Shown in pieces: positions 16,101 to 53,696 of a stretch of 64,000 nt of DNA; the stretch's first letter is position 1; each line of letters opens with the position of its first letter. The stretch covers positions 24,897 to 88,896 of IMG/VR virus record IMGVR_UViG_3300028920_000057. One strand, 5' to 3'. The stretch is from a virus. A program made the position numbers and the translations under genes. A model generated the notes under the pieces. The model worked only from the letters and a program-made list of their open reading frames with translations, was not told where the DNA came from and did not search any database.

Positions 16101-18568
16101 GTGTCGTTGCCCCTTGAATAAGGATACATTTTCAGCTGTATATTTTGTGTTGTTTTAGTATAAGAAAGGTTTTCTATATCCTTTTGTGTCAGATAAGCAA
16201 GGATCGGATAGGTATACGAGAATATGAGAGGCGCGTCCTTTTCTCCCAAGGCATTGTATGGTGCAATCCTCTCTCTGATGTTCGCAGATTCATCTAAATA
16301 CGTTTTGTCTATCCAATCTGTTACAACGGGAGTTCTGGCTAAATCTGATTCATATATATCATATTGTTTGTTAAGACCCGCAACTCCATAGCCCTCCTGA
16401 AATGCTCCCTCTATGGTTGCGATATACCCAAAGTTCGGAGCATACGGCATATAGTTGAAGAAAGAGAATCTCATTGTGGCATGTAAAGCTTCGGGGGCAT
16501 TGGGAACTGTAGATATACTTAATCCCTTAAATACCATCGGGACCCAGTTATCTATAAACTTTTTAGCAAGAACTTCAGTATGAGCTTTTGAAGTATATTT
16601 GAATGAATCCTGAAAATCAGCTTCATCCTTACGATCCTTTTCTGTCCTGTAAGATGCGAGGATGCTACGAATCTTTTCGAATTGTTGATCGTCATGAAAT
16701 CCCTTGGGGCTTGAAAGTCCTATTGTGGTTTCAATCGTTTCTAATCTACGCTTCATCTCTGCGAGAGTGACAGCGGATGCATGTACTGACTGAGAAGGGA
16801 CGGCGTCTATTCCTCGTACTACAGGAGACCACGAATCAGAACCTCCAAAATCGTTGAACTCAATAATGTTACGCCCTTTTGGGATCGTACTGAATGGGGC
16901 ATATATATAAATTGTATCATGGGGTTCTGTCCCGAACTTGGTAAAATCACTTGGACCCATCATGGCATTGAATTCATGTGCATATCCTGTCGTTTTACTT
17001 CTCGTAAGAGTATCAAAAGAAGCAAAACTGCTTGCAGATATATGTCGGGTCATAAAATAAAAGTGCTTGTTTACCATCTCATTAAAGCTTGCAGGCCTTA
17101 CAATCCTTAACTTTATAGTAAATATGTCGTCCTGATTTGCTATGCGGAATTTGTTTTCCAATTCGTAATACGGATACTGATTGGCTAACGCAGGATTGTG
17201 AGAAGTTTTACCTGCCCATCCCGCTAGACTTGCAGCATCCATTTTGTAGATTTCAAATGCCGACGTCTTTTTGATAGATCTAAATGCATTAGGGGGTAGA
17301 ACAAGATTGTCATCTCCTTGAGGGGTCGTTAACGCAACGCCGGTTTTGGGGTTAAAACCATTTGCATAAATATCGGGAAGAGCTTTGGCTGAGTTCCAAA
17401 CACCCGTTCCTGAAGCACTTGACGTTTTACCCGCTTCCAGATAAGGTTTATCTTTAATCCCCGCATTACCTGCGTTTGCAAGAGACATGGGAAACGCGAG
17501 GCCTTGCTGTGCCAATACTGCGTTTTGATTCTTTCCGTTAGCATATATCTCTGTCAAGGTTCGACCATATACTCCTTCGTCTCCCTTTTTAAGAGTGACA
17601 GCATCGTAGGGATCCCAGAAGTTTTTAGCCTGTATAGCATGGGTTTCCTCATAGGTAGTCGCACTCCTGTCGTACCATTCCTGTCCTGGCAAATTGTCGT
17701 GAGCAGTTTCGTAACAATCAATACCTACGATCCTTAGTTCTTCTCGGTTAGGAAGCCGGATGCTGTCTCCGTCTTTTATATCTGTTCCCGCAGCTTTGAG
17801 ACTTATCCCCTCTATTGCTGTCAAGCCTTTTCGAGACGCATCAAGTACCGTATCCGATATCCCATCACCATAAGATCCAATATCGTTGACGGCACATTTA
17901 ACAAACTGATCTACAAGCTTATCAACGGTAGGAGCTTCGTTTGGGCAATGCTTACCTGATAAGAAATTATATTTGTCTATAGCGATTTTATAGTATCTTT
18001 TGACTTCACTTATAACTTGTCTTGCGGCATATACGGGGTCCTTATCAATAAGCTCGTCTATGTATTGCCTTCCTGTCTTATCGACAGTCTTAGTAATAAC
18101 TTCGAGAACCGCTTGTAAACAAATATCTCTTGTTGCGGCATATACAAATTCTGGATAGAACAATTTGTCAACAATAGTCGATGTTAATAACAGGCCTGTC
18201 TGCCCCCTATTGACACCCAGGGCTTCCTTCCTTGTCTTTTCATATTGATCTTGTTCTGCCTGAAGTTGTGCGAGTTGTTCTTTGTTAAATAATGATTCAA
18301 TATAGATAGATGCGAGAAGATCGCTTTGAACATTAATAAATGGCATAGAATTATGTAGAGCAATAAGCGGCCTGAGTTTTGTGTTGATATCCCTTTCGTT
18401 AGGAAACACTACGCTGAATTGAATCTCAAACGCAGAAGATCCAGAAGGAATGGCCTGTGGCATTCCTCCCCGTATAGCCGGAATGATTGCATTCTTTTTA
18501 ATATCCGCAATTACCAGTGAATCTGGATCGACCGTAAGCTCTACATGCCCTATTCTTATATTTGCCAT
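10163..18568 (-). CDS. Giant baseplate hub/tail protein (2801 aa) with internal SNase (thermonuclease)-like domain
   Basis: Hub-like motifs LKPGVRIQIRAGYS...IFTGQVAEVQPG..IRLVAQG and MYQGNVTTLGKPEVNPYDIVTLED..RDLRGNFEVKRVVH....GFTTTITP. SNase motifs DGDSIRL, RIVGIDCYE, GVYGRTL, GLA, GVW. Hydrophobic segments near the C-terminus. Confidence 0.7.
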   Translation of the reverse strand: MANIRIGHVELTVDPDSLVIADIKKNAIIPAIRGGMPQAIPSGSSAFEIQFSVVFPNERDINTKLRPLIALHNSMPFINVQSDLLASIYIESLFNKEQLAQLQAEQDQYEKTRKEALGVNRGQTGLLLTSTIVDKLFYPEFVYAATRDICLQAVLEVITKTVDKTGRQYIDELIDKDPVYAARQVISEVKRYYKIAIDKYNFLSGKHCPNEAPTVDKLVDQFVKCAVNDIGSYGDGISDTVLDASRKGLTAIEGISLKAAGTDIKDGDSIRLPNREELRIVGIDCYETAHDNLPGQEWYDRSATTYEETHAIQAKNFWDPYDAVTLKKGDEGVYGRTLTEIYANGKNQNAVLAQQGLAFPMSLANAGNAGIKDKPYLEAGKTSSASGTGVWNSAKALPDIYANGFNPKTGVALTTPQGDDNLVLPPNAFRSIKKTSAFEIYKMDAASLAGWAGKTSHNPALANQYPYYELENKFRIANQDDIFTIKLRIVRPASFNEMVNKHFYFMTRHISASSFASFDTLTRSKTTGYAHEFNAMMGPSDFTKFGTEPHDTIYIYAPFSTIPKGRNIIEFNDFGGSDSWSPVVRGIDAVPSQSVHASAVTLAEMKRRLETIETTIGLSSPKGFHDDQQFEKIRSILASYRTEKDRKDEADFQDSFKYTSKAHTEVLAKKFIDNWVPMVFKGLSISTVPNAPEALHATMRFSFFNYMPYAPNFGYIATIEGAFQEGYGVAGLNKQYDIYESDLARTPVVTDWIDKTYLDESANIRERIAPYNALGEKDAPLIFSYTYPILAYLTQKDIENLSYTKTTQNIQLKMYPYSRGNDTNLDNIYNVHVESINYSIANNIQTIPLQASEIPTCQYAGKGNSFASITLSTNNLDSITEIRKVDKLMQEVARSTFHEIFPTKVQVISPVTNIFGNKQFILQSIKIADKQGSPGWFLVTFDMIESGYMDSHNENLDLVALPNVFEASEQEQDDIVDTLMEVLFNRKIQHTAVSTRIWRMLIGPNKFFTEAEDADKIKEIPILLQYTNPDEDDEFLIANRNVPDKIAYTPFFERAYKKSTNVAVGKGHDILAKFDNLDDPSLTDTNRRRYPYKFAIKENCPIFKIINEFNVFSSNEDRVAWNAYMRAMQFAGIIQVSPSSVPSNAKKWFSVDPHGYATIFRIIEKKGSLWVAQGINFISLTQDSLNDLIKKTDLNPNISRKQMGLMGRYRTEGLESLFINDRIAFYNEEDVSFPTGWLVTRVFGSLFRAAQIKQARSRQRFTSGNFLAYCIYELSGLLYKNREDANVQKAVRTMIESALRIDAYKELLSAIFAVTAPDDPIIQELYKKVKLRQTAHADLNLPTYNDVYGQLGHPGVNVLNMLTEAQALYTASLRIGDSILTSESNKLRSVLRLGDESAAFISLIHKNRDDIIRNIKSSINNIDKRVEVLNDELANNKVFTGDKRTRAQKRLDNITAASEALASSLEEFGEIPRINRKNIFTEIENLPTYAQLGVMPPINKFGVRNKEGVARSGNNLVEPGWQYYVPYGVAGKQKPDISIKPSKKVNHNKPVMPVQLFRENYENSRHDAKEIPQHGIFISTKRDANKERSIKVDKITKKQAVKSAETIAEYRKKRQKEVRNLIKEDPDLQNHSIGIKSKEDKDKGQKEVEKIINPKKDKGRNLVDVFNSTYTPDIVRLRQMNKSNRVYDIRKAFPTVQLYFLQENQAVFQNWSKLYNYDSIISVAVMHEKESVSGATVELTNFSGVLTNQPDYRKLKIDPRDVIEGEEVTTTLVSKGKYRLGQKGRVIESGELSETAIGDIVSFRLKPGVRIQIRAGYSSVDDENPIIFTGQVAEVQPGKIIRLVAQGYDYQLMRHLEESWTGAFNAFPTIITDMLHYAEHLGKWEPYQYSANWTTADAHEKSKSKSPDYVTAKGWFRAEEWLGMNDTCNDNLYNLPNHGTSPNLLNPFNLVQGSKWYCNGPILDNIYSMRRYIPGYAIAIKPYDERATLYFGPKDGVYICTSNVTQDMVMYNRLNNIQYNPSESNIIARDTYYYPGRGLPAFDGKPEDNDISGTKTEIKFAYTTREKIARSNDLVYNGATDLSPIDISRCFLRLWRMFARGDLISFKTRYVHTISDDEYGDYPSYLPGGFLEYSDIRNTDEIITVLKNTGVHKVFNDVFYREAAISADMKEIRNSNLVELINVDLKDVDRESEYGQTIFTALDKLQKHKNIWNADYLEALRAFVKLKKPSSGNWIDIPNSEATGVQIISSVDYNDFVQSIQERNLPFSSALINFLSKPENVKIPGGRFNYTAEEIGVNISKVLKVTAGTGFLVSQIFESLISKVSTLPHVEKLVPAGLDFPILYFAFLATDKIEYVGYISLRSLIVGLGRGGIKAKLQETAKKFYAFSFLSEQVGYDDSDPMASQPIYAPRKIALGDDFIKTYLSVLARSATKIRNKNMPTRGEQMSVGIDKSVLRIPPNRKPFRDTHIITDMDIISDDIIASKAHMANSVTLWTPNTGSAAASPESSLGAGDMVRHVVAFSPLLQDDIPVTAFDRNAAESAWFEAKVAQVGHGYLADYLREMYQGNVTTLGKPEVNPYDIVTLEDSVRDLRGNFEVKRVVHLYNNQTGFTTTITPHLISFANEDMESQRVIEQSVAELAWWGVGAIAVLASPGLFTLYGLGFAMIAAGATISATQYASAKARGGTTSSFLGIPFPTISAVGHTSTAFGWAGIDSKGLSRRNPCRIHPMRYKGEPLVAGLDGWEKNDWTNQQADDILKRDFKLGFSNFWLSLRRGTVRFIKRTEETARAIEEAREQITTNL

Positions 18569-21500
18569 TAGAATCTTCCTGTATTCCTTTGATGATGACT
18601 ATACATAAAGTTAATATCGTTTGTCATATTGTCGTTGACGTTAACGCTTCCTGTCATGCCTGCCGTGTTCATCATATTTACTACGCCAGGAACATCCGAC
18701 GAGTAGCCATTAGCCACCATTCTGCTTCCTATTGCGCTCTGCTGATGCAGATAAGCGGGAGGAGCGGTTATGGCTCGCTGGGTCACTGAGGGATCTACTT
18801 CTTGGACGGGAGTTGGAGGCAGTAGTTCTCCTGTGTCTCCAAACATTCCTGCCATAGCAACCCCTCCAGCAAAAGCAACCAGTCCTGCAATAGCCCCCCG
18901 GCCTTCAGGGATTAGAGACCTAGATAGGATTGTGTTGATCAATTTACCTTCTTTTGCCTTACCGGCAGCTCTTGTTGTTGCCTCTAGAATCTTCTCTTGA
19001 GCATCTTTAGACGCTCTTCCCGACTCAACAGCCTTCTTCATAGAATCTCTGAACGCACTACGAGCCATATCGGGATCGGCCACTCCCACTCCTACGGCGG
19101 CCTGAACCGCATGCAATAGAGGAATACCTGCTTCTGGAGCTAAGTCGTCAAGCTTATGCTTAGCCAAATATTCTTGGGTTCTGTAGAATAATTCCGATAC
19201 ATACTCAGCACTTTCGCCTTTGGCCTGTTTGCTTGTAAGAACTCGCATGGTTTTAGCAAGAAGATCGGCACCAGATTCTATTTCTTTTAACTTGCCAGGA
19301 GTGTCTGCAGTTCTCTTTGCCAACACCTCTCTCAGTATATCGGCCATACCTCCAAAACGCTCGTCGTCCAGAAGGTACATATGTTCTTTACCTTTTGAGA
19401 CCTTTTCGGTTAATGACAAGAAAGCTTCGTTTGGCAAAGCCTGGTCTCCAATATCGAGCATAAACTTACCTTTATGCTCACTAAGAAGTTTTCCTAAATG
19501 AGTATTGACTCCTGCTAATTTAATGTCTTCATCAGTAATTCGACGCCCCAAAGAAGCTTTAAAGCTATCAATAAAATCTGTACGCTCTTGAGCTCCTAGA
19601 GTATGTCCTCTTTCCATCTTTTGCAGCAAAGCATACATACCCTTGGCACGCAAAGCGTTGTTTATAGCTTTGGTGTCCTTGAACTCACGAATCCTTGCCT
19701 CACTAAGCGTAAAGCTTAGAGCGTCATACAGACCGGGTAGCAATTCCTTCTTTTTTATACCGGTTTCAGTAACCCATCCGGCCGCTTCTCCGAAGAGAGC
19801 TCCTTGCTCCAGCGCTTCTCCGCTAACTGCGGCTAGGACTCTGGCTGATAAGTTGGACACCTTTCCGGTTTCCAGCCCATACTCCAGCTGTCCTTTAATA
19901 ATGCGCTCCCACTTATTATCTAAAGCGCCGAACTGTCTTCTATATGCCTGTTTGATTTTATGTAGTTGAGCATCTACTTTGGTCTTTGCCTTAATATTCT
20001 CTGGCCGCATTGGTTCGCCAGACTGTCTCATCTGCGCTCGAATCCTGTCTTCTTCAGCACTAACTCTATTTATGATTCTGGCCAGCTCATCTCTTTCAAC
20101 ATCGGCGCTCAGTTCTCTTACTGCTTTCAATGTCTGATAGCCTGTTGCATAATACTGAAGTTCTCCCAGCATCTCTTGCTGAGTGGCCTGAAACCCCTTG
20201 TCTACCAACCTTCTCATCGCGTTAGAAGCTGTGCGGCCTGTTGGGAGAAATGTCAAAGAGCCCATATCAAAGTCGAAGTCCCCTTTTGCCAGCTCGATAA
20301 GTAGTCCGCCTACAGCCGCCTTGCCCCTAGCTACTTGTGGATCCGATATAAGTCGTACTACCTGTTGGTTGGTTGTGCTTAGATCGGGCCACCTGCGATA
20401 GATACCAAAGGCTTTGTCGGTATCTTTCATGCCGGTACCACGCATGAACTCCTTCATGTCGTCAGGATTAATAAAGACGGTTGCCAAGTCTTCTGCAATT
20501 TGCCTCGCGCCCTTACTGCTCTTAAGCAGCTGTCGTAAATCTCCAGTATATTGTCCTGTTCTAAATTCATGAGCGATTTTATTAGCCAGCCTAAAAGCTC
20601 GAGTTCCCTTTTTGTGAACCGCTCCTATCTGCATAGGATGAACTATCGCGCCTTCCTCTTCAATCCAGAATGCCTTGGCGATTGATCCTCCTTTACCTCG
20701 CATGGCGTTTCCCATGGTGGATTTGAATTCGTTTTCAATAGTCTCAGTAAGAACCTGGGCATGGGCGATTCTCTCATCAAGAGACAAAGACTTGTCGGCC
20801 AGGCTTTCTGCAAACTCGACTGCCGCATTATATATCTTAGCTCTTGTCTTTAGAGCTGGCATACCAAAAGCTTTCTCATCAAGATTTCTCATAAGCTCTT
20901 CGTTGCTCGCAAAACCTATTCCTCTTTCAAACACCTGCTTTAATATCATCGCCCGTCGACCTGTCCAGAATTCGCTTCGGGTCATGATTGTGTCAAGAAA
21001 CTCATCAGTGAAATCAGCTCTATTTGAGAACTTCATTCTAAAGCCCATTGTTGCTGCATCTGTATCTTTAGGACGTCTGTGCCCTAATCTTTTGGAGGCG
21101 TCTTTGAACAACTCTCTCAGTGTTTCTGGAGAATCTTGATCTAAGGGATTTGACTTGACCTCGAAGAATTTAGATAACATGCGCGCCCCTCGCATCGTTT
21201 CATCCGAGGCCGCACCGACATCTATGTCTATAACTCTCCCCGCCTTTCTCATCACGTCTAAGTAGTCTCCCTGGAAGAACGGTAGCGCAGTATCAACCTG
21301 CATCATTGCACCACGTAGATACTTAGCGTTTGACCCTTTAATAATAGCCTCTCTAAGCTGGCTTTGGCGATAAACATATGCGGCCATACCACCTTCGCTG
21401 CCAAAAGCTCTCCCGGTAATCATAAGCTGATCTCGAAAGGTGGTTTTCATTGGACTAAAGGTTCCCATTGTAGCCTGTTCGCTCATCTCTGTCTGCCATA

Positions 21501-24141
21501 AATTAAATGCAGTCAGCAATTCTCGTTTTACTTTCCTGGGTATGTTTCTTTGGCGAGCCATTCTTAATATAGCCCTCTCGGGAGATTTGCCTTTATACGT
21601 CTCTAAGAATTGTTCTGCCGTTTTAGGAAATTCACCTTTAAGTTTATCTCCTCCGAAATGCCTCCCGTACAACTCAACAAAAGCATCTCGGCCTGTCTTG
21701 TATCTTCCTCGGACCTTTAATTTTCTAGTCTGAGTTTGAGCAACAGAACGAGCATGTATCCGAGCATCTCTTCGGGGAGTACTTGCGCGATACAAAGGAG
21801 CGCCTCCAACTCCGCCAGCCTGCTCGGCAGTAGCTCTTGTCTTAGTCAATACAATGCCTTCTGCTTCGTTTATCAGCTTTTCGTCTACCGCATGAACTGC
21901 TGCGACGGGAATCCTTCTCCTCCCCTTTATATCTCTTTGAGCATAGAAACCTTCTGGATCACCATAGATTTCTTCGAAAAAGCCTACATTACCTTTCAAC
22001 TTTTCTTTGGGGCCTACTCTGTTCTGTTCAGCAGTAGCCTTGATTTCATCAATGACGACTGCGGGAGACTCTGTCAAGTCTTCACCATAGGTCCATGTCG
22101 CCCTAACTTCCTCAGACAAAGATCCCTGTGTATGCTTTAGTGAAACAAGTCCAGTATGAAGGGCTCGAATTTCTTTTGCTACATACTCTTCTGTTTCACC
22201 TGCTACTTGTCTGGTCTCAATAATCTGAGCTAACAAAGCCCCTTTCTTGGCAAAGACGTCTCGATCAAGAGCTTCTTTTCTTAGAACTCTAAGGGTCTGC
22301 GTCTGAGGATCGATACCCCAACGATTAAAAGTCTCTGTTGTCTTTGTTAGTATTGAAGGATCTAAATAAGGGTTGACCTGAAACATTCCTGACGCTTTAT
22401 TGGCTACAGTCGGAGACCCAATAGCTCCTAAAGAAAACTCTGGTACCAACAGGGGGAAATCAGCAGCTTGAGCTCGAGCCCATTTATTGTACTGACTCGT
22501 ATACTCTGCTACAGACATCTTCCCAAAAACAATGTCGCGACCCATCTCTTTGAAGCCCCAAGCGCGTCCTTGTTCTGTAATTGTTTTTCCTTTTCTTGCC
22601 AAGCCAACTAAATAGTCAACAAACTCCTCTTGATAAGCACCGTGTACAAAGGCAACACCAGCTTGCATGTGAGGAGTCGCTTTGTAACCAACGTTACGAG
22701 ACAATGCGCTAACCAATTTTCCGTACAAACCTCCCGCTTTCTTTGGAGAGGCTACAGATATATCTATTCCCATCTTTCTGGCCGCACGCAGTTTAAGTCC
22801 TGCTTGACCCGTTAGATTCCATGATGTCGTGTTAGCCAGGGCTTTGGCTGGGCCTTCTCGCTGATAAGTCCTCTCTGATAGACCGAAAAACTCATGAATG
22901 GACATCTGATTCTCAAATAGAATAGAAGATGTAGTTCCGCTAAACAGTTTTTGCATCCTGCTACCAACCGCTCGATTCCACATATCTATCGCTTCACTAG
23001 TCGCTCCGACCATAGTCTTATCTTTTAAAATATAACCACTCTTGCTTTTTTGTAAAACCTGACCATATGTACTGATTTCATCTCTTGTAAACGCAGGCAG
23101 TATCCGATGGATGTCTGAAGTCGGGTCAGACATCTGCTCGCCAAGCACATTAAATGCCTTCTCTGCGTTTAGAACAACCTCGCCTTTTTTGTTCACGTCT
23201 TGAAGATCTTCGAACACGATTCGAGCGGAATGCAAGACCTGTTCTATAGCTCCCAGCTTATCGCTGACTTGTCTCTGTCGTGGTCTGGATGGCTCGTAGA
23301 ACTTCTGAAATCTATCTACTAGCGATCCTTTTAATCGCTTAAACTTCCCTGCGGCTGAAGAAGCATCTCTCCATTCATCAGAATTGATCGCCTTAAATAC
23401 CTGAGCCAAGACGGCTTCATTGTATGGCATCAGCACAGCACTTTTACCAGCCTGGGTGGCAGACAATCCAAACCCCTCAAGGCCTTCGGTAGCCACAAAG
23501 CCCGCAATCGGAGCCACGTTCATACCCCTACCATAAGAGCCGAAAACTCCTGTAATAAACGGTAAGCGAGTTTCGCCAATAGTTCTATCTCCTATAGAGG
23601 CTCGTAGCGACATAGAGAAAGTAGCGCCAGCTAAAGCATCTTCTTTCCCAGATCTTGCTAAGGTATTAATGGCTCTTTTGCTTAGGCTTGAATCAAGAAC
23701 AAACTCAAATTGTACACCAGTGTCTTTTTGTATCTGGGCAAATTGTTTCTGCACATTCTCCAGCTGTCTTACGTAGTTCTTGGCATGTTCAGACCCCGTT
23801 CTGAGTCCTTTGACATCTATGAAATCGATAAGATCTTTATTTTGATCGACCGTATATTCTGCTATCTGCTGTTGGATCCTGGCAATTTCTTTAACGTCTG
23901 TAATAGAGACTCCTCCGACGGGTCTGGCTTCTATATCTGGACGCAACTCGATGTCTCGAGTATATTTACTGGGTTGCCTGACAACACTAGTTACACCTTT
24001 GATAGGCCTGGACGCGGCTCGAGATGCAAGCATAGACTTCTGCTCCCGACCAATGGCTTTACCAGTGATCAGAGTGTCGGCCTCCTTTGCTGCTTGGACC
24101 ATCTCTTCAAACATATCTATCTTAAAACGCGCTTTGGCCAT
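18568..24141 (-). CDS. Putative virion-associated single-chain two-barrel (DPBB) DNA-dependent RNA polymerase (1857 aa)
   Basis: Beta'-like motifs in canonical order: MRGKGGSIAKAF (cf. LKGKQGRFRQNL), TVFINP, GIYRRWPDL (RxP, 20386-20397) and GDFDFD (DxDxD, 20266-20280) about 38 residues later. Located inside the tail module. Confidence 0.7.
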   Translation of the reverse strand: MAKARFKIDMFEEMVQAAKEADTLITGKAIGREQKSMLASRAASRPIKGVTSVVRQPSKYTRDIELRPDIEARPVGGVSITDVKEIARIQQQIAEYTVDQNKDLIDFIDVKGLRTGSEHAKNYVRQLENVQKQFAQIQKDTGVQFEFVLDSSLSKRAINTLARSGKEDALAGATFSMSLRASIGDRTIGETRLPFITGVFGSYGRGMNVAPIAGFVATEGLEGFGLSATQAGKSAVLMPYNEAVLAQVFKAINSDEWRDASSAAGKFKRLKGSLVDRFQKFYEPSRPRQRQVSDKLGAIEQVLHSARIVFEDLQDVNKKGEVVLNAEKAFNVLGEQMSDPTSDIHRILPAFTRDEISTYGQVLQKSKSGYILKDKTMVGATSEAIDMWNRAVGSRMQKLFSGTTSSILFENQMSIHEFFGLSERTYQREGPAKALANTTSWNLTGQAGLKLRAARKMGIDISVASPKKAGGLYGKLVSALSRNVGYKATPHMQAGVAFVHGAYQEEFVDYLVGLARKGKTITEQGRAWGFKEMGRDIVFGKMSVAEYTSQYNKWARAQAADFPLLVPEFSLGAIGSPTVANKASGMFQVNPYLDPSILTKTTETFNRWGIDPQTQTLRVLRKEALDRDVFAKKGALLAQIIETRQVAGETEEYVAKEIRALHTGLVSLKHTQGSLSEEVRATWTYGEDLTESPAVVIDEIKATAEQNRVGPKEKLKGNVGFFEEIYGDPEGFYAQRDIKGRRRIPVAAVHAVDEKLINEAEGIVLTKTRATAEQAGGVGGAPLYRASTPRRDARIHARSVAQTQTRKLKVRGRYKTGRDAFVELYGRHFGGDKLKGEFPKTAEQFLETYKGKSPERAILRMARQRNIPRKVKRELLTAFNLWQTEMSEQATMGTFSPMKTTFRDQLMITGRAFGSEGGMAAYVYRQSQLREAIIKGSNAKYLRGAMMQVDTALPFFQGDYLDVMRKAGRVIDIDVGAASDETMRGARMLSKFFEVKSNPLDQDSPETLRELFKDASKRLGHRRPKDTDAATMGFRMKFSNRADFTDEFLDTIMTRSEFWTGRRAMILKQVFERGIGFASNEELMRNLDEKAFGMPALKTRAKIYNAAVEFAESLADKSLSLDERIAHAQVLTETIENEFKSTMGNAMRGKGGSIAKAFWIEEEGAIVHPMQIGAVHKKGTRAFRLANKIAHEFRTGQYTGDLRQLLKSSKGARQIAEDLATVFINPDDMKEFMRGTGMKDTDKAFGIYRRWPDLSTTNQQVVRLISDPQVARGKAAVGGLLIELAKGDFDFDMGSLTFLPTGRTASNAMRRLVDKGFQATQQEMLGELQYYATGYQTLKAVRELSADVERDELARIINRVSAEEDRIRAQMRQSGEPMRPENIKAKTKVDAQLHKIKQAYRRQFGALDNKWERIIKGQLEYGLETGKVSNLSARVLAAVSGEALEQGALFGEAAGWVTETGIKKKELLPGLYDALSFTLSEARIREFKDTKAINNALRAKGMYALLQKMERGHTLGAQERTDFIDSFKASLGRRITDEDIKLAGVNTHLGKLLSEHKGKFMLDIGDQALPNEAFLSLTEKVSKGKEHMYLLDDERFGGMADILREVLAKRTADTPGKLKEIESGADLLAKTMRVLTSKQAKGESAEYVSELFYRTQEYLAKHKLDDLAPEAGIPLLHAVQAAVGVGVADPDMARSAFRDSMKKAVESGRASKDAQEKILEATTRAAGKAKEGKLINTILSRSLIPEGRGAIAGLVAFAGGVAMAGMFGDTGELLPPTPVQEVDPSVTQRAITAPPAYLHQQSAIGSRMVANGYSSDVPGVVNMMNTAGMTGSVNVNDNMTNDINFMYSHHQRNTGRF

Positions 24142-27100
24142 TAAAATCTCCCTGAGTACCTATACTTATAAGCGTCAAAAGTTGACCTGCGATCATACAT
24201 TATATCAATATTGGCGTGATTGTCACCTACGGCTCCCACGGTTGGCATGGAGCTTATTTGCATATTGTTAATAGGCATGGAATATGATGCTGCAATCATT
24301 TCGTCACCAATCGTAGCCATATTTGGCAATGTGATTAGGTTTTTTATGTAAGGTCGCGATCTATCTAAGTCTCGCTCGTCGGCTCCCCAGAATCCATAAT
24401 CATGGACATCTCTGCCGTCGAACTGGACAGACGCCAGTTTAATATCATCAAGAGAGACATCTGGTCTCCATCCGGCCCAGCCTGGCCCAGGCATAGGAGT
24501 TCCCGCAACAGACGCCTGCGATTGCTGAAGAGCCTGCATATTTGCTCCCAGACTGCCACCCCTGGCTTGCCATATCTTTTGAAGCATTGGAGCCATATAA
24601 TCTGGAACTTCCCTTAGAATGTCCTCGTGATACTCAGAGGGAGCGTGAGAGAAGTCCAGAAGAAAACGGCGATCCGCCTTCGGTAAAGCGAGATATGCAT
24701 TTTCTATAAATTCTTGATTTGCACTTCCGTAATCCAGTCCTCTCATGGTTCGACCATGTATTTTGTCCAAACGAGCCACAACATCATTCCTGCCCGCTCT
24801 CTGAGCTATATCAGATAGAACTTCGACCTTTTGAGCCTTCATGCTGTCAAAATATGTTTCTATTTCACGACGGCGCTGTTCTTTCTCCCAGTGGTCTCCG
24901 GTGTTAAGTAGATTAGAAACGACGCCTGCTCCCATACCTCCTATTCCTAAAACCATTGCGCTATACGGGTCTCGACCCAAAACAGCAAAAGCAGCACCAG
25001 AAGTAGCTGAATCAATCACATCTCGAGAAGCCATCTGTCTCATATATGGAATCAGCATGGAATCTATCGGCTGAGTCCAATCGTAGAAATCATCACCCAC
25101 AGTTATTCTGTCTCTATAGAGGTCTAGAGGAGTCTGTCTCTGATAGAGTTTAGAAAAAGCATAAGGAATATGAGGTAAGGATGGCTTGAGTCCCATCGTC
25201 CAGCTGGTCGAGGGATTTACAGAGAAGGCCGCAGAATGGTCTGTCTTAATTAATGTGCTGGGCTGCCCTTGGCCTCCCATAAATGGAGATCCCGGAAATA
25301 CCTGAAAGCCACCTGAAGCGTTGTATCCGTTATGAAAGTTAGATACCATTGGGTTTATTTCATCGCGAGTTCTCATTCCAGGTAGAAAACGGCGAAGCAA
25401 CTCTGTTGAACCTATAGCTCCTCCCAGATCCATATCATAATAAGCCCTACTTGTAGAATAAAGGTCTGTCGCATTTTGCCAACGCCGACCTTCAGCAAAA
25501 AAGTCCGACGTACCCGTTAGCTGCTTCTTAGCAAAGCCAATAATAAACCCGCGCATCCCCCAAAAGGTCTTAATTCGATCAAGAGTCTGTCCTGCAGCAT
25601 CTAAAAGGCTGGGAACTCTAGGTACTGTAAAACCAGGATTGATAGTCTCATATCCAAGCTCGCTCGCTATTTGCTGAAGTTCGTCTTTTTTACCTCTCTT
25701 CTGAATAAAGTCTCGAATAGCATGACCATGCATTATCTTTGTAGGTTTTAGTCCCTCACCTATAGTCGCCCCAAGTAGAGGACCAATTATAGGTACGTCC
25801 GTAAAGAGCTGGCCCGTAAGAGGGTACGGCTGATTATAATAATTTCTGCGCTCTGTATAGTACGGATCGGTTCCCGGAAGTCCTGTCCAAGAGGTTAGAG
25901 GAGTTCTCAAAGGAAGGGTTAAGGGAGATACATTGAGAAAATATGCGCCTTTGCCCCCATAGATATCATATGGCTGATCTTCCATCTGCCTGGCAATGTA
26001 ATGCTTACGCATTCTAGTTATATCACCACCAGCATAATCTTGAGGGCCAAGACCCCACCACCTGTTCTCTCGTATGGGAACCAGCTTCTCTCCCATATAC
26101 TCAGCCCGCAGATCTCTCCAATCCTTCATTGTAGCAGAGGTTCCTAAAGCCAAACCTCCTACAACGGCACCAACCATCCCACCTCGAGTTTTAGCTGTAG
26201 CTTGCCCGATATCGCTTAGAATTCCTCTGTTTGCGGCGCGCTTTGAAGCCAGCCTCTTACCTATGGCGCCTCCAACAGCAATGCCGGCAAGGCCTCTAAA
26301 CGCATATCCAAGGAATGAATCTGGCAAACCTGGGAAAACAGCGTCTACGCCTTCGGCTACTGGCGTCATAGTATAGTTGGTAATTGCTTGCTGGCCGACC
26401 TTAAGAGTCCCGTAGGTGGCTAATGCAGATTTCTTCAGTCCTACATCACCAAATGGATTCGCTTTTTCTACCAGATAATCAAAGAAGTGAAGACCTTCCC
26501 ATGCGAGATATGCCCCAACTCCTGTTAACGCTGCCGCTCCCAAGAATTGCATTGGCCCCATAGGCTTAACACCTAAGCCGGTAAGAGCTTCGATTAACCT
26601 TACTGTGGTTTGAGATCCTTGTGCAGCCTTAATCTTCAGGCTGTTCATAAAGCCGCCTTCGTAGGCCATGTACTGAGCTGAAACAGGACTACTCGGCTTC
26701 AGTCCTCGGAACGCATTTTGTCTACGCTGCTTAGGGCTCGGGTCTACCTTTCCAAAAGGACTGGCTTCACGCCCAGACTGCACTCTCCTGAGCCTGCGCA
26801 GTCTTTCCATACTAATTCTACCCTTCTGAGTCCGGGCAAGAATTAGCTCTTCTTCCGTTAAGTGCGCGTATTGGCTTGTCTCAATCCCAAGCTTATTCGC
26901 AATTCTTTCGAATAAGTCTAGCTGGTCTTCTCCTTTTACAAAGCCTCGCTTGGGATGCCAGACTATTCCTTCCGCACCAGAGTATTTTGGATGTGGCGTG
27001 GTTTTCCCGAAGCGTTTGAACCAGTCAAATATTTTACCGTATACAGTCTTAGGTTCTACTGCGTGTCTTGAGGAATAGACATCTAATCCCTTGCTGGTCA

Positions 27101-28259
27101 GCCATTCGTCAACAGAGGCGGTAAGAGGAGTAGCTCCGGTGTCTGCATTATATACAAAATTTAGTCTACGCCCTGTCGCTCCCTCGATCAACTCATTTAA
27201 AGAGGGTCCTCCTCCTATTTTTTTATTAAAGATAGCTTCGAGTATTGGGTGGTCATAGAACCCTTTTTCAATAAGACCTTTTCTAGTCCTGCCGGTTGCA
27301 GCGTCTTTATATCCTCTTAAAGGCTTTGTGGAAGCATACCGCTCGTCCATAGAAGCGATGCCGCGTGCAGCAGAAGAATCTGTAGCATATATCTTATAGC
27401 CACTGCCGAGCTTCTGTAGCTCACCCTCTCTAATAGAGAACAGTTCGTCGTCAATAATAAAGCCTTGCTCTGGCTCAAACCCGAGCATCGCCATATTCTT
27501 CGCACTAAGACGTGCAGTAAGAGGTCCTTCTCCTGAAAAGATAAAATCTAAAGGATTGCCAACAAAGGGATAGCGGAGTCTTTCAGTTAAAGCCTTTTGA
27601 ATACTTCCCGCAGTAAAGGCTTCCGTTATAACTCCTTCTTTTCTATTAAGAAATACTCCTCGGTCTATGATCTCTTCGCCAGTCAGCAGAGGATCTGCTT
27701 TGCGACGCATTTGCTTCATTGCTATAAGATCTAGCTCGTCCATCTCCCTGCCAAAGATGGTAACGGTCTCCCTGCCGCCTCCGATAGGCTTGGCTGCTCC
27801 TGCTCCGACTCTCTCGTATTCCGATACAACGTGCTCTACGTTTAGGTACTCATATCCCTCTGGCAAGTTCGTATGTAAGCCCTCGGGTCTGGAGAATCTT
27901 CTCTTGATGGCTTTTTTGAGATTCCTCTGAAGCTGTTGTCTTACAGAGTCTGGAGTAGACATAAATTGTGTGTATTGCCTACTTATCTCTGGTAGTAAGC
28001 CCCGAGAAAATGTCCTAGTAGAACTAAGAGAGGAAAGAGATTCACGAAAGTTGTGACCCAGTCGGCCCAGCTTCATAGACAGAGGCTCTAACATATACCT
28101 TGCATCGGCAAATGCTCCTGCCGTAGACTGTCTTAGAGCTCTGTAAGCTCCAATACCCAGGCCTACCCCAATCAGAGTGGCTCCAATCTTTAATGCCGCA
28201 CCCACCCCATCGGGCTGTTGAGGTCTTTCAGGATATGCTGTTGGATCATAAGGAGGCAT
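24141..28259 (-). CDS. Tape-measure-like / ejected virion protein (1372 aa)
   Basis: Follows tube genes and two chaperone-like genes; basic, Gly/Ala-rich, several hydrophobic segments. Confidence 0.55.
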   Translation of the reverse strand: MPPYDPTAYPERPQQPDGVGAALKIGATLIGVGLGIGAYRALRQSTAGAFADARYMLEPLSMKLGRLGHNFRESLSSLSSTRTFSRGLLPEISRQYTQFMSTPDSVRQQLQRNLKKAIKRRFSRPEGLHTNLPEGYEYLNVEHVVSEYERVGAGAAKPIGGGRETVTIFGREMDELDLIAMKQMRRKADPLLTGEEIIDRGVFLNRKEGVITEAFTAGSIQKALTERLRYPFVGNPLDFIFSGEGPLTARLSAKNMAMLGFEPEQGFIIDDELFSIREGELQKLGSGYKIYATDSSAARGIASMDERYASTKPLRGYKDAATGRTRKGLIEKGFYDHPILEAIFNKKIGGGPSLNELIEGATGRRLNFVYNADTGATPLTASVDEWLTSKGLDVYSSRHAVEPKTVYGKIFDWFKRFGKTTPHPKYSGAEGIVWHPKRGFVKGEDQLDLFERIANKLGIETSQYAHLTEEELILARTQKGRISMERLRRLRRVQSGREASPFGKVDPSPKQRRQNAFRGLKPSSPVSAQYMAYEGGFMNSLKIKAAQGSQTTVRLIEALTGLGVKPMGPMQFLGAAALTGVGAYLAWEGLHFFDYLVEKANPFGDVGLKKSALATYGTLKVGQQAITNYTMTPVAEGVDAVFPGLPDSFLGYAFRGLAGIAVGGAIGKRLASKRAANRGILSDIGQATAKTRGGMVGAVVGGLALGTSATMKDWRDLRAEYMGEKLVPIRENRWWGLGPQDYAGGDITRMRKHYIARQMEDQPYDIYGGKGAYFLNVSPLTLPLRTPLTSWTGLPGTDPYYTERRNYYNQPYPLTGQLFTDVPIIGPLLGATIGEGLKPTKIMHGHAIRDFIQKRGKKDELQQIASELGYETINPGFTVPRVPSLLDAAGQTLDRIKTFWGMRGFIIGFAKKQLTGTSDFFAEGRRWQNATDLYSTSRAYYDMDLGGAIGSTELLRRFLPGMRTRDEINPMVSNFHNGYNASGGFQVFPGSPFMGGQGQPSTLIKTDHSAAFSVNPSTSWTMGLKPSLPHIPYAFSKLYQRQTPLDLYRDRITVGDDFYDWTQPIDSMLIPYMRQMASRDVIDSATSGAAFAVLGRDPYSAMVLGIGGMGAGVVSNLLNTGDHWEKEQRRREIETYFDSMKAQKVEVLSDIAQRAGRNDVVARLDKIHGRTMRGLDYGSANQEFIENAYLALPKADRRFLLDFSHAPSEYHEDILREVPDYMAPMLQKIWQARGGSLGANMQALQQSQASVAGTPMPGPGWAGWRPDVSLDDIKLASVQFDGRDVHDYGFWGADERDLDRSRPYIKNLITLPNMATIGDEMIAASYSMPINNMQISSMPTVGAVGDNHANIDIMYDRRSTFDAYKYRYSGRF

Positions 28260-28270
28260 AGATATTCTCC

Positions 28271-28912
28271 CTATTTAGTCTTCGAGGGATCGGCTGTCTT
28301 AATGTCAAAGGAGGCTTGTGACTCTCGGTTGATAAACTCTATACCAGAGATCAGCTCCATGATCTCAAAACAATTGAGATCATCAAGACTCGAAAGAGAT
28401 AGGGCTGGCAGCCATTTACGTATAAACCAGTCCATACCCTTTTCAACGTCCCCTCTCTCGAGAGTCTCGCGAGCCATATTCTTAACTTCGCAGATAGCCT
28501 CGATAGAGTGGAAGCCACTGCTTTCAAGAAGGATTTGTTTAATTTTACTGTCTATCCCCGCCTTGAGATTATTTGAAAACTCCGGGTCGTCAAATATTTC
28601 TCTGGTAGGATAGAAGATGTTGTCGCTGAATACATCGTAGATATCATATGCCGGGCCGACCATTCTTTCTACTGTCTCATAGATTTTAAATTGTCTTCTT
28701 GTTAGAGGACTGTAAATTAAATCTATATCATTGACCTTACAGTAAAAAACATAGCTATGTTTCTTTCTGGCTTCTACGATATATTTTGTGAGATAAGAAG
28801 GGACAGTTCCATTGTTCGACTGTCCCATAATGTCGACTATAGAATGAGAGAGAGCGTCGTCAGTTGCGTCGCCCCCCGTCATGAATTCTTGTATCAAAGA
28901 TTCTTGATTCAC
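28271..28912 (-). CDS. Tail assembly chaperone-like protein 2
   Basis: Position before the tape-measure-like gene; LIYSPLTRRQF resembles YIYRPIMRPEH of the upstream gene (likely paralogues). Confidence 0.5.
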   Translation of the reverse strand: MNQESLIQEFMTGGDATDDALSHSIVDIMGQSNNGTVPSYLTKYIVEARKKHSYVFYCKVNDIDLIYSPLTRRQFKIYETVERMVGPAYDIYDVFSDNIFYPTREIFDDPEFSNNLKAGIDSKIKQILLESSGFHSIEAICEVKNMARETLERGDVEKGMDWFIRKWLPALSLSSLDDLNCFEIMELISGIEFINRESQASFDIKTADPSKTK

Positions 28913-28914
28913 GT

Positions 28915-29514
28915 CTACAGCTTAATAGGTTGAACATCCACATGACCAAAATCACTAGAACTTAGGATAGTGTTACATAACGTAGAGCTTGTACCAGCTC
29001 GCGTCCCTCGGCCACCGTCGCGGAGATCAAATGGCGTAAGTCTTGGAAATAGAGTGCACGAGCAGACAATCTTCTCTTCAATTTGCTCACGATTGATACC
29101 TTCTGTGTTCACGATCTTTCTATGCTCTGGCCTCATAATGGGGCGATAGATATATATACCGCTTGGCAGCTCTACAAAATAGATATCTTGATATTGCTCT
29201 TTCAGCTGCAGAATTAGCTCTGGAGGACAATCATCTGGCAGATAAGGTAAAAGCTCTAAGAGCCATTGGGGATACTCGATTCTACTGTCTTCTTGAGGTG
29301 CAAGAGGATCGATGGGTTCCTGTTGTTGCATCTGGGCTGAAGGTTGGGGAGTCTGAAGAAGAACATTCTCTCCCGATCCCATTTCTGAGGATAGTGCCTG
29401 CATATCTGCATTAAGATCTGCTTTTCCGTGATCCGCAGTCAAATCAACCGGGGGTGCTTCCGGTACTACCGGAGTTTCGCTCTTCTGAGCTCTTTTTGGT
29501 GGGTTAAGTTTCAT
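28915..29514 (-). CDS. Tail assembly chaperone-like protein 1
   Basis: I..LKEQY.DIY....IYIYRPI.R.E...E..IV..C.LFP...AG..STL...I...S.F pattern; position after the tube genes; GGGAG RBS. Confidence 0.6.
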   Translation of the reverse strand: MKLNPPKRAQKSETPVVPEAPPVDLTADHGKADLNADMQALSSEMGSGENVLLQTPQPSAQMQQQEPIDPLAPQEDSRIEYPQWLLELLPYLPDDCPPELILQLKEQYQDIYFVELPSGIYIYRPIMRPEHRKIVNTEGINREQIEEKIVCSCTLFPRLTPFDLRDGGRGTRAGTSSTLCNTILSSSDFGHVDVQPIKL

Positions 29515-29526: not shown

Positions 29527-30528
29527 TTAAACAATAGTTTTAGCAAAAAATGAGTAGGCTTCTTTAATGTTTTCTCGGTCGCCTACATGAACCGATGTCG
29601 CCTCTGTATTGAAGTAACAATCCCTAAGTACCTTACGGTGCTTTCCGTCTGCACCGAATTCAATTTCGATATCTATTTTATGACCATTATTATACATGTC
29701 ATCAAAAAACGAGCTCCCTACTAAAGATTTCTTGTATTTTTCAATCGTGACAGGCGATTCGGGAGGCTTAACGGCTTTCTCGTTAATTCCATTATTGATA
29801 ATATTGGAATTAGTTTTATTCTCTTCAATCCGATATTCTATATCGTTTGCGATACTGGCGAGGTTATTGTAATTATCTTTTAGATCCTGATCTGCCGGAG
29901 TCGAATCGGTATTCTCCAGGATGTCGATTCTGTCGCTAATCTCGTTGATCGCATTACTAAAATCCTCTCGCAAATAGTTGACGATCCGAACGGAAGAATC
30001 ATACTCATTGCCTCCTTGCTCTGAATCTAGATAGGCTTGAGTATTCGAGAGATACAGAGTATTCTCTTGCTGAAGAGACGTCAACACAACCCTCAACGTA
30101 GGCACGCTCCAGAGAGGACCAATCAATCTGCTACTCCCTCTGCCTAACACTTTTTGTAGGGCAGACAAAAAGACTAAGCCACTTCTGTGGTTTGCGCTAT
30201 TTGCACCGTAAGTGTCTTCCAGTAACGCCTGCTCTTCTCTAGACAGGCCTTCTTCTAGAACTTCGGGTGCTCCGAGACTATACAATAGAACGGCGGCTAT
30301 AGAATCCTTATAATTCTTATTGACCATCAGCATTCCGCTAACCAATTCTCTTCCAGAAGTAACTGCGGCGAATTGCTTATCTCTATACCCATAGAGGGGG
30401 ATCTTCTGGTTTGATGCCTCATAAGTTATGCCGCAAGCATCGTCCATTAATATCGAAGGACGGCCCTGTACGCGGATATAGATAGCTATATCTGGCACCA
30501 TAAAATAAGGAGTTTTAGCTTTACTCAT
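29527..30528 (-). CDS. Tail tube-like / tube initiator protein (third paralogue)
   Basis: GITYEASNQKIPLYGY...AVTSGRELVSGML and the C-terminal E.YSFFAK parallel the tube proteins. Confidence 0.6.
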   Translation of the reverse strand: MSKAKTPYFMVPDIAIYIRVQGRPSILMDDACGITYEASNQKIPLYGYRDKQFAAVTSGRELVSGMLMVNKNYKDSIAAVLLYSLGAPEVLEEGLSREEQALLEDTYGANSANHRSGLVFLSALQKVLGRGSSRLIGPLWSVPTLRVVLTSLQQENTLYLSNTQAYLDSEQGGNEYDSSVRIVNYLREDFSNAINEISDRIDILENTDSTPADQDLKDNYNNLASIANDIEYRIEENKTNSNIINNGINEKAVKPPESPVTIEKYKKSLVGSSFFDDMYNNGHKIDIEIEFGADGKHRKVLRDCYFNTEATSVHVGDRENIKEAYSFFAKTIV

Positions 30529-31150: not shown

Positions 31151-31162
31151 TACTCCCTAAGT

Positions 31163-31197
31163 AAAAAAAACAGCCGGCCTATAAGAGACCGGCTGTT
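31163..31197 (-). terminator. Intrinsic terminator after the major tube gene
   Basis: Minus strand AACAGCCGG-tctcttatagg-CCGGCTGTT followed by a T run, just after the tube stop codon. Confidence 0.75.
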
Positions 31198-31205
31198 CGT
31201 ATCTG

Positions 31206-53507: not shown

Positions 53508-53531
53508 ACAAAATACCTCGTTAGGTTAGAA

Positions 53532-53696
53532 TTAGTTTGCTTGAATCAAGCGGATAAGAAAGATTGCGTCCCGATAGTTTGTCAGACCGTCGCGGACATA
53601 CTTTCTCCAAATGAGATGAGAATTGAGGTGGTCGTATTGGGTAAGGAACTGGGGTGTGCGTTGACGCAGTAAGGTCAACGCATCTTGTTTACTCAT
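53532..53696 (-). CDS. Small hypothetical protein (54 aa)
   Basis: MSKQDALTLLRQRTPQFL...; start overlaps the end of the epimerase gene. Confidence 0.45.
   Translation of the reverse strand: MSKQDALTLLRQRTPQFLTQYDHLNSHLIWRKYVRDGLTNYRDAIFLIRLIQAN

Follow-up and report, generated by a model that had tools for sequence, protein, structure and literature searches.

A tape-measure-slot protein with an RNA-polymerase-like catalytic block in a distant relative of Bacillus phage 0305phi8-36: a candidate tail-delivered transcriptase

The locus described here raises the question of whether a phage can carry its own RNA polymerase inside the protein that occupies the tape-measure position of its tail. 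The window analyzed was a stretch of 64,000 nucleotides (positions 24,897 to 88,896 of IMG/VR virus record IMGVR_UViG_3300028920_000057); the source viral contig is 46% complete. One of its genes, P0001, had been predicted to encode a single-chain two-barrel RNA polymerase and to be coupled by TAATG to a tape-measure-like gene upstream and a hub gene downstream. The coupling was confirmed, with overlap of stop and next ATG at each junction. The upstream gene proved to be something else: P0004 is a homologue of gp145 of Bacillus phage 0305phi8-36, and P0001 itself fills the tape-measure slot. The features of the locus are listed in Table 1.

The gene order sheath, tube, chaperones, gp145-like gene, P0001 and hub is the order found in 0305phi8-36, where one gene lies between the chaperones and the tape measure (PMC2147016). 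P0001 adjoins the gp145-like gene and the hub gene, the same placement as 0305phi8-36 gp146. Its assignment to the tape-measure locus is based on synteny with 0305phi8-36, KLEB27-3, WH1 and ME3; no tape-measure match to P0001 was found in Pfam or PHROG. The hub was matched by tblastn to the hubs of 0305phi8-36, KLEB27-3 and others, and P0004 shows colinear matches to Moorella CDS0026 and KLEB27-3 gp031/033. Judged from its sequence, the phage is large and contractile-tailed, with a distant relationship to the lineage of Bacillus phage 0305phi8-36. In 0305phi8-36, gp145 and gp146 are both virion proteins by mass spectrometry, and the annotation of both WH1 gp095 and KLEB27-3 gp034 is that of a structural protein.

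Table 1. Features of the P0001 locus, with positions in the window and residue numbers in P0001
Feature	Position	Strand	Basis or remark
Two small genes (213 and 199 aa), slot of split tail chaperones gp143/gp144	28271..29514	-	Position only
P0004, 1372 aa, homologue of 0305phi8-36 gp145 (virion protein)	24141..28259	-	BLASTP E 5e-19
P0001, tape-measure-slot protein with internal RNA-polymerase-like catalytic block	18568..24141	-	Single 1857-aa frame
Candidate second barrel DPBB-B, residues 930-996, AKYLRG...LPFF...IDIDVG	21154..21354	-	By eye only
GKGGS, conserved Gly-rich motif just upstream of barrel region, residues 1149-1153	20683..20697	-	G1149 invariant
Region aligned to KLEB27-3/WH1-type DPBB-A (beta'-type barrel), residues 1173-1334	20140..20625	-	hhalign
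RRWP, [RK]xP motif, residues 1249-1252	20386..20397	-	P1252 invariant; R1250 = R/R/K
DFDFD, putative metal-binding Asp triad, residues 1288-1292	20266..20280	-	D1288/D1290/D1292 invariant
Candidate bridge helix, residues 1411-1447, Y..ETGK...	19801..19911	-	By eye only
Gly-rich hydrophobic, transmembrane-like segment, residues 1747-1768	18838..18903	-	Kyte-Doolittle 1.84
Conserved C-terminal tail ending GRF, residues 1790-1857	18571..18774	-	In most conserved window
Baseplate hub, 2801 aa, SNase domain and lysin-like region, downstream of P0001	10163..18568	-	Pfam SNase E 6.5e-8; PHROG 20474

A search of 1.8 billion representative proteins returned only two homologues of P0001, namely P0002 (39% identical) and P0003 (23%). 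About 11% of columns are invariant across the three family members overall. The three motifs on which the original prediction was built, GKGGS (1149), RRWP (1249) and DFDFD (1288), are all present in that order, and DFDFD is the sole DxDxD within P0001. Absence of the DxDxD from homologues had been named as evidence that would count against a polymerase; the motif is kept, as DFDYD in P0002 and, following K-D-P, as DQDMD in the 23% identical P0003. The RxP motif and the first Asp are separated by 35 intervening residues in each of the three members (RWP, RWP, KDP). The spacing is 33 in E. coli beta', ~35 in P23-45 gp96 and ~36 in phi14:2 gp66. RRWP aligns to NRYP of the Bacillus-phage proteins described below and to NRxP of RNA polymerase beta'. 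That neither the three Asp nor the RxP proline has changed in a homologue only 23% identical, and that the block ranks with the best-conserved windows, argues for selection on catalysis. Comparison of the three sequences thus supports the RxP...DxDxD block as a conserved, selected element.

Two finer points of the motif assignment held only in part. GKGGS is conserved, but its reading as beta' GKxGR is weakened by a doubtful equivalence to GKxxxxSGR. The SGRF strand of the Bacillus-phage relatives aligns ~25 residues beyond GKGGS, and MAFFT sets GKGGS on HGGT of WH1; in crAss-like polymerases, NGGSF is found at the start of DPBB-A. Phe at the fourth motif position is unusual, as had been noted, but crAss-like phages, with Ile or Val, already lack Gly there. 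The position is Gln in the same-slot protein of Acinetobacter phage ME3, a candidate polymerase.

The motif was also assessed against its background frequency. A DxDxD is not rare, as ten further ORFs of the same contig carry one. The literature filter [RK]xPx{20,100}DxDxD (Chaban et al., Supplementary Data 4) is matched by all three family members, by 7% of shuffled P0001 sequences (0.9% at a tight spacing of 32-40) and, in its loose form, by two unrelated ORFs of the contig. On its own, the P0001 family has no match in Pfam, PHROG, NCBIfam or PDB, and profile and PDB searches gave no direct match of the family alone to any RNA polymerase model or structure.

What ties the family to RNA polymerases is a set of proteins that fill the same slot in other phages. 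KLEB27-3 gp034, WH1 gp095, the Edson protein and six IMG/VR relatives are encoded where P0001 is, with the gp145-like gene preceding and the hub following. The KLEB27-3, WH1 and Edson proteins are longer than P0001 (2434-2515 aa vs 1857 aa) and carry the canonical SGRF...NRYPT...AD[YH]DGD, whereas the P0001 family has RRWP and DF-D-[FYM]-D. They are annotated only as structural or hypothetical, and no experimental test of KLEB27-3-type proteins was found in the literature searched. Pfam PF00623 (RNA_pol_Rpb1_2) matches all three (best E 9.7e-4, sub-threshold), and each is the sole PF00623 match in its genome (E 7e-5 to 9e-4). In the PDB, they match large subunits of RNA polymerases best.

With hhalign, the P0001 family was aligned to the KLEB27-3-type family over 144 columns (P 3.2e-5, probability 73%, six sequences). 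A further hhalign comparison with these Bacillus-phage proteins gave P 8.5e-5, and P was 7.4e-4 once the DxDxD was masked (z about 9); in neither case was the score equalled by any of 120 shuffles. Two more blocks match the KLEB27-3 family in the same order, the hydrophobic segment with P 0.014 and the C-terminal tail with P 0.009, the latter a score that 2 of 120 shuffles attained. Outside these three blocks, no similarity between the P0001 family and KLEB27-3-type proteins was detectable. A joint profile brought up the NRxP..DFDGD region of phiKZ nvRNAP beta' with E 3.4e-4, compared with E 0.36 when only the Bacillus-phage proteins were used. When the joint profile was built from seven sequences, RNA polymerases took all of the first seven places among its PDB matches. 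These alignments support homology of the P0001 block to the beta'-type barrel signature of the same-slot Bacillus jumbo phage proteins. Against gp96, gp66, the crAss profile and rpoC, hhalign recovered no more than the motif, 5-6 residues long (P 0.015-0.28). For the flanks, similarity to known families was weak (z of 0 to 2.4), in a test without power since known polymerases score z of -0.7 to 1.9 against one another.

The prediction of a single-chain two-barrel RNA polymerase therefore survives in one respect, the homology of the catalytic block to RNA-polymerase-like proteins in the same slot, but not in another, since no RNA polymerase was matched when the family was searched by itself. 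AlphaFold2 was run twice, on alignments of three sequences, and gave mostly helical, uninformative models (mean pLDDT 42.5 and 36.5); Foldseek output on these low-confidence models was meaningless. Candidates for other parts of a polymerase were picked by eye. Residues 930-996, the candidate for the second barrel, which in two-barrel polymerases contributes a pair of basic residues, are among the most conserved 60-aa windows and contain [KR]-x-L-R-G; neither hhalign nor the PDB profile search gave support for them. Residues 1411-1447 form the second most conserved window, with the Y-x4-GK spacing of the crAss consensus bridge helix. This candidate bridge helix lies ~130 residues past DFDFD, vs 168 in gp66, and has no statistical support; no recognizable clamp, bridge or trigger elements were found.

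Two virion-delivered polymerases were compared with P0001, of which gp96 is the nearest known counterpart. In the literature searched, Thermus siphovirus P23-45 gp96 is the only documented RNA polymerase fused to a tape measure, and gp96-type proteins are also found in P74-26, G20c and TSP4 (Chaban et al. 2024, PMC10770324). Like P0001, gp96 is very large and is encoded in the tail module, at the locus of the tape measure (PMC10770324). In both, an RxP lies about 35 residues ahead of the DxDxD, the transmembrane part follows the polymerase part (predicted in P0001) in the chain, and resemblance to other polymerases in sequence stops at the motif region. First-gene transcription during DNA entry is the role proposed for both, for P0001 by analogy. 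Homology between them is not detectable, however, with hhalign matching the motif only (P 0.11-0.23). P23-45 has a non-contractile tail of ~800 nm, whereas the phage studied here is contractile-tailed. The 5002-aa gp96 has its polymerase at the extreme N-terminus, DFDGD and a metallopeptidase domain; the 1857-aa P0001 has DFDFD at residue 1288 and no peptidase. The activity and structure of gp96 are known, whereas P0001 is known from sequence alone.

The second protein, phi14:2 gp66 (DFDID), is reported as a demonstrated virion-packaged RNA polymerase by Drobysheva et al. (bioRxiv 10.1101/2020.03.07.982082). Like P0001, it is very large and its gene neighbors those for virion structural proteins, and it shares DFDxD with a bulky non-Gly fourth position (Ile/Val in 95 gp66 relatives). 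YR.P lies ~36 residues upstream of its DFDxD, and a GGS motif at its barrel start resembles GKGGS of P0001. In contrast to P0001, gp66 belongs to a crAss-like phage (order Crassvirales), is not at the tape-measure locus and has a known structure and activity. A 95-sequence profile gave no homology beyond motifs (P 0.15-0.28, DFDxD or RxP fragments). In the gp66 crystal, as that preprint reports, the bulky fourth-position residue accompanies a Mg-incompatible conformation (bioRxiv 10.1101/2020.03.07.982082), a point that weighs against the polymerase reading of P0001.

The alternative that survives best is that P0001 is a plain tape measure or ejection protein that sets tail length and forms a membrane channel, its block being either what is left of an earlier polymerase domain or a conserved metal-binding or structural element, in each case inactive as a polymerase. 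P0001 does occupy the tape-measure slot, its prediction is largely helical, at low confidence, and its transmembrane-like segment and conserved C-terminal tail are shared with other slot proteins of the lineage. Two of these, 0305phi8-36 gp146 and the same-slot protein of Moorella MTATph1, have no DxDxD and function without it, so the basic role of the slot would be independent of the motif. In addition, the search for a second barrel found none, and the fourth motif position is not Gly. A protein with only these duties, however, accounts poorly for a highly conserved block whose Asp triad and RxP proline are invariant at 23% identity and whose flanks are still homologous to the canonical NRYPT...ADYDGD barrel. 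Nor do the two roles exclude each other, as the P23-45 chain combines a tape-measure role with an active two-barrel polymerase (PMC10770324). Taken together, we consider a plain tape measure unlikely, if still a serious candidate.

Another possibility is an enzyme with a different job, such as a two-barrel RNA-dependent polymerase, a primase-like protein or another nucleotidyl transferase, which might make a primer or short RNA at entry. The variant fourth position (F/Y/M) and the want of recognizable clamp, bridge or trigger elements leave room for another substrate. This reading seems improbable, since nothing in the present evidence points to another substrate and gp96 and gp66, both of the studied virion-delivered members, are reported to be DNA-dependent early-gene transcriptases. 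Least probable, and already disfavored, is that the motif arose by chance in a tail protein of low complexity that evolves fast: the frequent DxDxD, the filter matches in shuffles and unrelated ORFs and the isolation of the family would fit it, but not the conservation in all members, the 144-column alignment, the three colinear blocks or the score that stays significant after masking.

The explanation that we favor, by a cautious judgment, is that P0001 is a tape-measure-slot protein whose mid-part is a single-chain two-barrel RNA polymerase that has diverged strongly and acts as a tail-delivered early transcriptase. The putative polymerase would span about residues 900-1500, with the catalytic barrel at ~1170 to 1300 bearing R1250-x-P and D1288/D1290/D1292, and the C-terminal 110 residues would comprise the transmembrane-like segment and conserved tail. 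In the proposed sequence of events, the C-terminal part assembles P0001 into the tail. Contraction of the sheath would then expel P0001, its hydrophobic segment inserting into or tethering it at the membrane, and P0001 would carry out transcription of the earliest genes during DNA entry, the behavior demonstrated for P23-45 gp96. The fold, second barrel, activity, packaging and timing are what we infer for P0001. Its tape-measure position, together with a conserved catalytic signature of the kind seen in cellular-type RNA polymerases, makes it probable that the phage delivers a transcribing enzyme of its own by way of the tail. Delivery by this route agrees with the place of the gene in the tail module, the hydrophobic segment near the C-terminus and the precedent of P23-45 (PMC10770324).

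A broader and more tentative proposal, which we would put somewhat short of even, is that the lineage including the cultured phages KLEB27-3, WH1, Edson and ME3 builds a single-chain two-barrel RNA polymerase into its tape measure and ejects it through the tail, that the catalytic loop of the P0001 clade, with F/Y/M at a position where Gly is required in cellular enzymes, is inactive until ejection, and that an RdRP-type polymerase is found where the domain is lacking. The motif is present in KLEB27-3 and WH1, which lack an RdRP-type gene; 0305phi8-36 has a separate RdRP/YonO-type polymerase, orf99 (PMC2147016), and no motif in gp146. If true, tail-delivered two-barrel polymerases would also occur in jumbo phages with contractile tails, infecting Gram-positive as well as Gram-negative hosts, hidden in genes labeled structural or hypothetical, and would explain the large size of these tape-measure genes. 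Phages would have a broader range of host-independent ways to start transcription, and the RNA polymerase superfamily would gain very diverged branches with non-Gly catalytic loops.

The C-terminal hydrophobic helix had been suggested to mediate membrane tethering or auto-inhibition. Its Gly-rich hydrophobic sequence begins at residue 1749. No other segment of this kind occurs in P0001, and both homologues, P0002 and P0003, have kept this one. Because a hydrophobic helix is common to the tape-measure-slot proteins of the lineage, a role at the membrane or in a channel is plausible, but auto-inhibition found no support. In 0305phi8-36 gp146, the giant, fast-diverging assigned tape measure, only the last ~60 residues are conserved in the lineage (PMC2147016). 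The neighboring P0004 also has Gly-rich hydrophobic segments and, like P0001, ends in GRF, and the P0001 tail is weakly similar to its C-terminus (E 0.006).

The gene for P0001, the protein under study, is a single open reading frame within a run of minus-strand genes that includes every gene from position 2 to 55892 (Table). The source IMG/VR virus record is 88.9 kb, with an estimated completeness of 46%. In the direction of transcription, the order is terminase, portal, major capsid protein, sheath, two tube paralogues, genes of 333, 199, and 213 aa, the genes for P0004 and P0001, the hub gene with its staphylococcal-nuclease (SNase) domain and lysin-like region, and a baseplate wedge gene. 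This order marks the phage as large and contractile-tailed. The PHROG label of the tube paralogues is probably wrong because they follow the sheath gene. A nuclease at the tail tip, as seen in the hub, is unusual. A lipase, an epimerase/dehydratase, and a dehydrogenase are encoded beside the packaging genes.

Features of the window and of the compared loci, with coordinates
Feature	Location	Strand	Details
P0001	18568-24141	-	single 1857-aa frame
P0004	24141-28259	-	1372 aa, upstream of P0001
Baseplate hub	10163-18568	-	2801 aa; staphylococcal-nuclease domain, residues 278-392 (Pfam E 6.5e-8); region matching giant 'endolysin' PHROG 20474
Tail-tube paralogues	30521-31853	-	match phrog_9206, labelled 'major head protein'
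Genes beside packaging genes	52567-55892	-	class-3 lipase; NAD-dependent sugar epimerase/dehydratase; UDP-glucose/GDP-mannose dehydrogenase
P0005	57913-61047	+	1044 aa, early region
Early-region cassettes	56543-62100	+	GC-rich hairpin, then T6ATTT(T), then A-ACGG; 45 nt common to four copies, T-run core common to six
Iteron-like array	62167-62293		six copies of TCGCGTCGCTC, 19-24 nt spacing
G-R-F-stop with Shine-Dalgarno-like site, both giant genes	18568-18582; 24141-24155		window
G-R-F-stop with Shine-Dalgarno-like site, both giant genes	L002 9795-9812; 15290-15307		metagenome locus
Moorella phage MTATph1 CDS0027	L008:16540-20469		slot protein; RNase_T/DEDD exonuclease domain (Pfam E 5e-5)
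ME3_36, Acinetobacter phage vB_AbaM_ME3	L020:3173-7984		1603-aa hypothetical protein between gp145-like gene and hub

P0001 had been proposed to be a single-chain two-barrel RNA polymerase that is injected with the DNA. The sequence elements named in that proposal were recovered: GKGGS, RRWP, and DFDFD start at residues 1149, 1249, and 1288, in the claimed order; a Gly-rich hydrophobic stretch near the C-terminus starts at residue 1749; and TAATG, in which the stop overlaps the following start, couples the gene to both neighbors. P0001 contains no DxDxD other than DFDFD. The distance from RxP to the first Asp is 35 residues, compared to 33 in E. coli beta', and the spacing in P23-45 gp96 and phi14:2 gp66 is close to that of P0001.

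The best phage matches of the terminase, the hub, and P0004 all fall in one group, which comprises Bacillus phage 0305phi8-36, Moorella phage MTATph1, Bacillus phages KLEB27-3, WH1, and Edson, and Acinetobacter phage ME3, the last placed there by its terminase match only. The order in 0305phi8-36 is sheath, tube, tube paralogue, gp142, chaperones gp143/144, gp145, gp146 (annotated as 'hypothetical tape measure'), and the hub gp147; both gp145 and gp146 were detected in virions by mass spectrometry. P0004 is homologous to gp145 (E 5e-19, colinear segments) and, therefore, P0001 itself occupies the tape-measure slot. The original prediction had placed the gene between a tape-measure-like gene and the hub gene, which was right for the hub but not for the upstream gene. 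From this position and the mass-spectrometry data for the lineage, we infer that P0001 is present in the virion.

The enzyme carried in this slot seems to vary from one relative to another. DxDxD is absent from gp146 of 0305phi8-36 and from the Moorella phage slot protein, which has an exonuclease domain instead and whose gene precedes a transposase insertion. The slot proteins of KLEB27-3 (gp034, 2434 aa), WH1 (gp095, 2515 aa), and Edson contain SAKMDMSGRF, GLYGF-NRYPTIN, and KAD[YH]DGD in that order, a textbook signature of the beta'-type catalytic barrel. Pfam RNA_pol_Rpb1_2 matches all three (best E 9.7e-4), and in six-frame searches of the three genomes the slot protein was the sole match to this family (E 7e-5 to 9e-4). 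A profile of these proteins gave RNA polymerase large subunits (ASFV RPB1, phiKZ gp55) as its top PDB matches, and six further relatives were found on jumbo-sized IMG/VR contigs. In ME3_36, SREP is followed after about 40 residues by GGDHDQD, as seen by eye only; hhalign detected no similarity between this protein and P0001.

An exhaustive phmmer search of 1.84 billion representatives yielded only two relatives of P0001: P0002 (1831 aa, 39% identical, motif DFDYD) and P0003 (1813 aa, 23% identical, motif DQDMD). Word-index searches added no homologues, and an IMG/VR scan with the three-member alignment gave no match. A metagenome scan found one locus, L002, with a P0002-type protein and the same gene order as the window. 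Loss of DxDxD among homologues had been named as a possible refutation; the three Asp (D1288, D1290, and D1292) and P1252 are invariant in all three proteins, and residue 1250 is R/R/K, in a family where invariant columns make up only 11% of the total. Conservation by 60-residue window is among the highest across RxP-DxDxD, and also at 937-996, 1405-1464, and in the C-terminal 110 residues. DxDxD by itself is uninformative since 10 other ORFs of the contig contain one. The motif filter of Chaban et al., [RK]xPx{20,100}DxDxD (PMC10770324), was passed by 7% of shuffled P0001 sequences, and by 0.9% at the canonical spacing of 32-40.

Direct searches with P0001 or its family gave no polymerase match. 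Neither the protein nor the three-member family alone had a relevant match in Pfam, PHROGs, or NCBIfam, and phmmer and profile searches of the PDB found no polymerase. Likewise, no relevant match was obtained with tblastn against 50,697 phage records, no match in the ESM Atlas, and none in a six-frame search of the contig with PF00623. AlphaFold2 models from three-sequence alignments had mean pLDDT values of 42.5 (residues 800-1660) and 36.5 (1135-1330), and Foldseek on the former returned only noise. Comparison of the family by hhalign with the single sequences of gp96, gp66, rpoC, and rpoB aligned only the DFDxD hexamer or an RxP fragment, as did comparison with a profile of 95 crAss-like polymerases built here (P 0.015-0.28 across these comparisons). 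When the 46 residues preceding the motif were compared in an anchored test, z was 0 to 2.4 against known families; the test is non-discriminating in both its ungapped and gapped versions, which lack power, because structurally proven polymerases scored no higher than -0.7 to 1.9 when compared with one another. These results agree with the literature, in which two-barrel families share no significant similarity outside the motif region.

The link to polymerases came through the Bacillus-phage slot proteins. In whole-profile hhalign of the two families, the top two matches were colinear: the C-terminal tail (P 0.009) and P0001 residues 1244-1334 against the NRYPT...ADYDGD region (91 columns, P 0.0098). 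Restricting the comparison to this region gave a score of 35.6 (P 8.5e-5), and deleting the five motif columns on both sides left 29.7 (P 7.4e-4); 0 of 120 column shuffles reached either score (null 12.6 +/- 2). Using six distinct same-slot sequences extended the alignment to 144 columns (P0001 1173-1334), with a probability of 73% (P 3.2e-5). The hydrophobic segment of the P0001 family also aligned to the Bacillus-phage family (P 0.014), and MAFFT independently placed the R, P, hairpin D, K, and three Asp in invariant columns. Combining three Bacillus-phage sequences with two of the P0001 family in one joint profile gave a match to chain A of the phiKZ non-virion RNA polymerase (E 3.4e-4) at NRxP...NADFDGD, with 23.8 bits versus 13.4 when the P0001-family sequences were omitted. 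The best seven PDB matches of a seven-sequence joint profile were all RNA polymerase beta'/RPB1-type chains (E 0.022 to 0.43). The joint profile A9 gave no match to ME3, 0305phi8-36, or Moorella phage sequences.

The P0001 block is probably a genuine homologue of the beta'-type barrel. The reading we favor for P0001 is a tape-measure-slot protein into which a very diverged two-barrel RNA-polymerase core is built, together with a membrane segment and a C-terminus that would anchor it in the tail. We lean slightly toward the full reading, in which the polymerase is active and enters through the tail to transcribe early genes. The closest known system, P23-45 gp96, works alike, yet has no detectable homology to P0001. 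No description of two-barrel polymerases of the tape-measure-slot type in contractile-tailed phages was found in the literature searched.

By eye, residues 930-996 ([KR]-x-L-R-G, LPFF, then IDIDVG) resemble a beta-subunit barrel, in which K940 and R943 are candidates for the basic residues opposite the Asp triad. Also by eye, residues 1411-1447 (Y-x4-GK) resemble the bridge helix of the crAss consensus, and their distance from the motif is plausible. Neither candidate gained support from hhalign or PDB profile searches; profiles of blocks 900-1010 and 1400-1500 matched no polymerase in the PDB. Position 4 of the motif is Ile or Val in crAss-like polymerases, and ME3_36, from a cultured phage, has Gln there, another non-Gly variant (DHDQD). 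A preprint on the gp66 crystal describes the motif in a Mg-incompatible conformation (bioRxiv 10.1101/2020.03.07.982082).

GRF is the C-terminal sequence of P0001, P0002, P0003, P0004, and the L002 homologue of P0004. A tail common to P0001 and P0004 is suggested by this identical end and by pairwise BLASTP of the last 67 residues (33% identity, E 0.006); an HMM of the P0001-family tail did not recover P0004. The G-R codons (GGG AGA or GGA AGA) lie 7-12 nt upstream of the overlapping ATG and were read as Shine-Dalgarno-like GGAG/AGGA. Since these codons could double as a ribosome-binding site, the identical ends may partly reflect a nucleotide-level constraint from translational coupling.

The distribution of polymerases differs among the relatives. 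In 0305phi8-36, gp146 lacks the motif and an RdRP/YonO-type polymerase is encoded separately (PF05183, E 1e-20); KLEB27-3 and WH1 have the slot motif and no PF05183 gene, and the Moorella phage has neither. In these very few genomes, the pattern fits two alternative routes to phage polymerase supply. P0005 was considered as a second polymerase (DTADFDD, then YRFP) and was rejected by the [RK]xP...DxDxD filter. Searches of Pfam, NCBIfam, the PDB, and the phage records gave no match for it, and PHROGs gave only a marginal one (phrog_19131, function not known, E 0.004). The repeated early-region cassettes resemble a terminator joined to a promoter and might serve as signals to a phage polymerase; an iteron-like array lies just beyond them.
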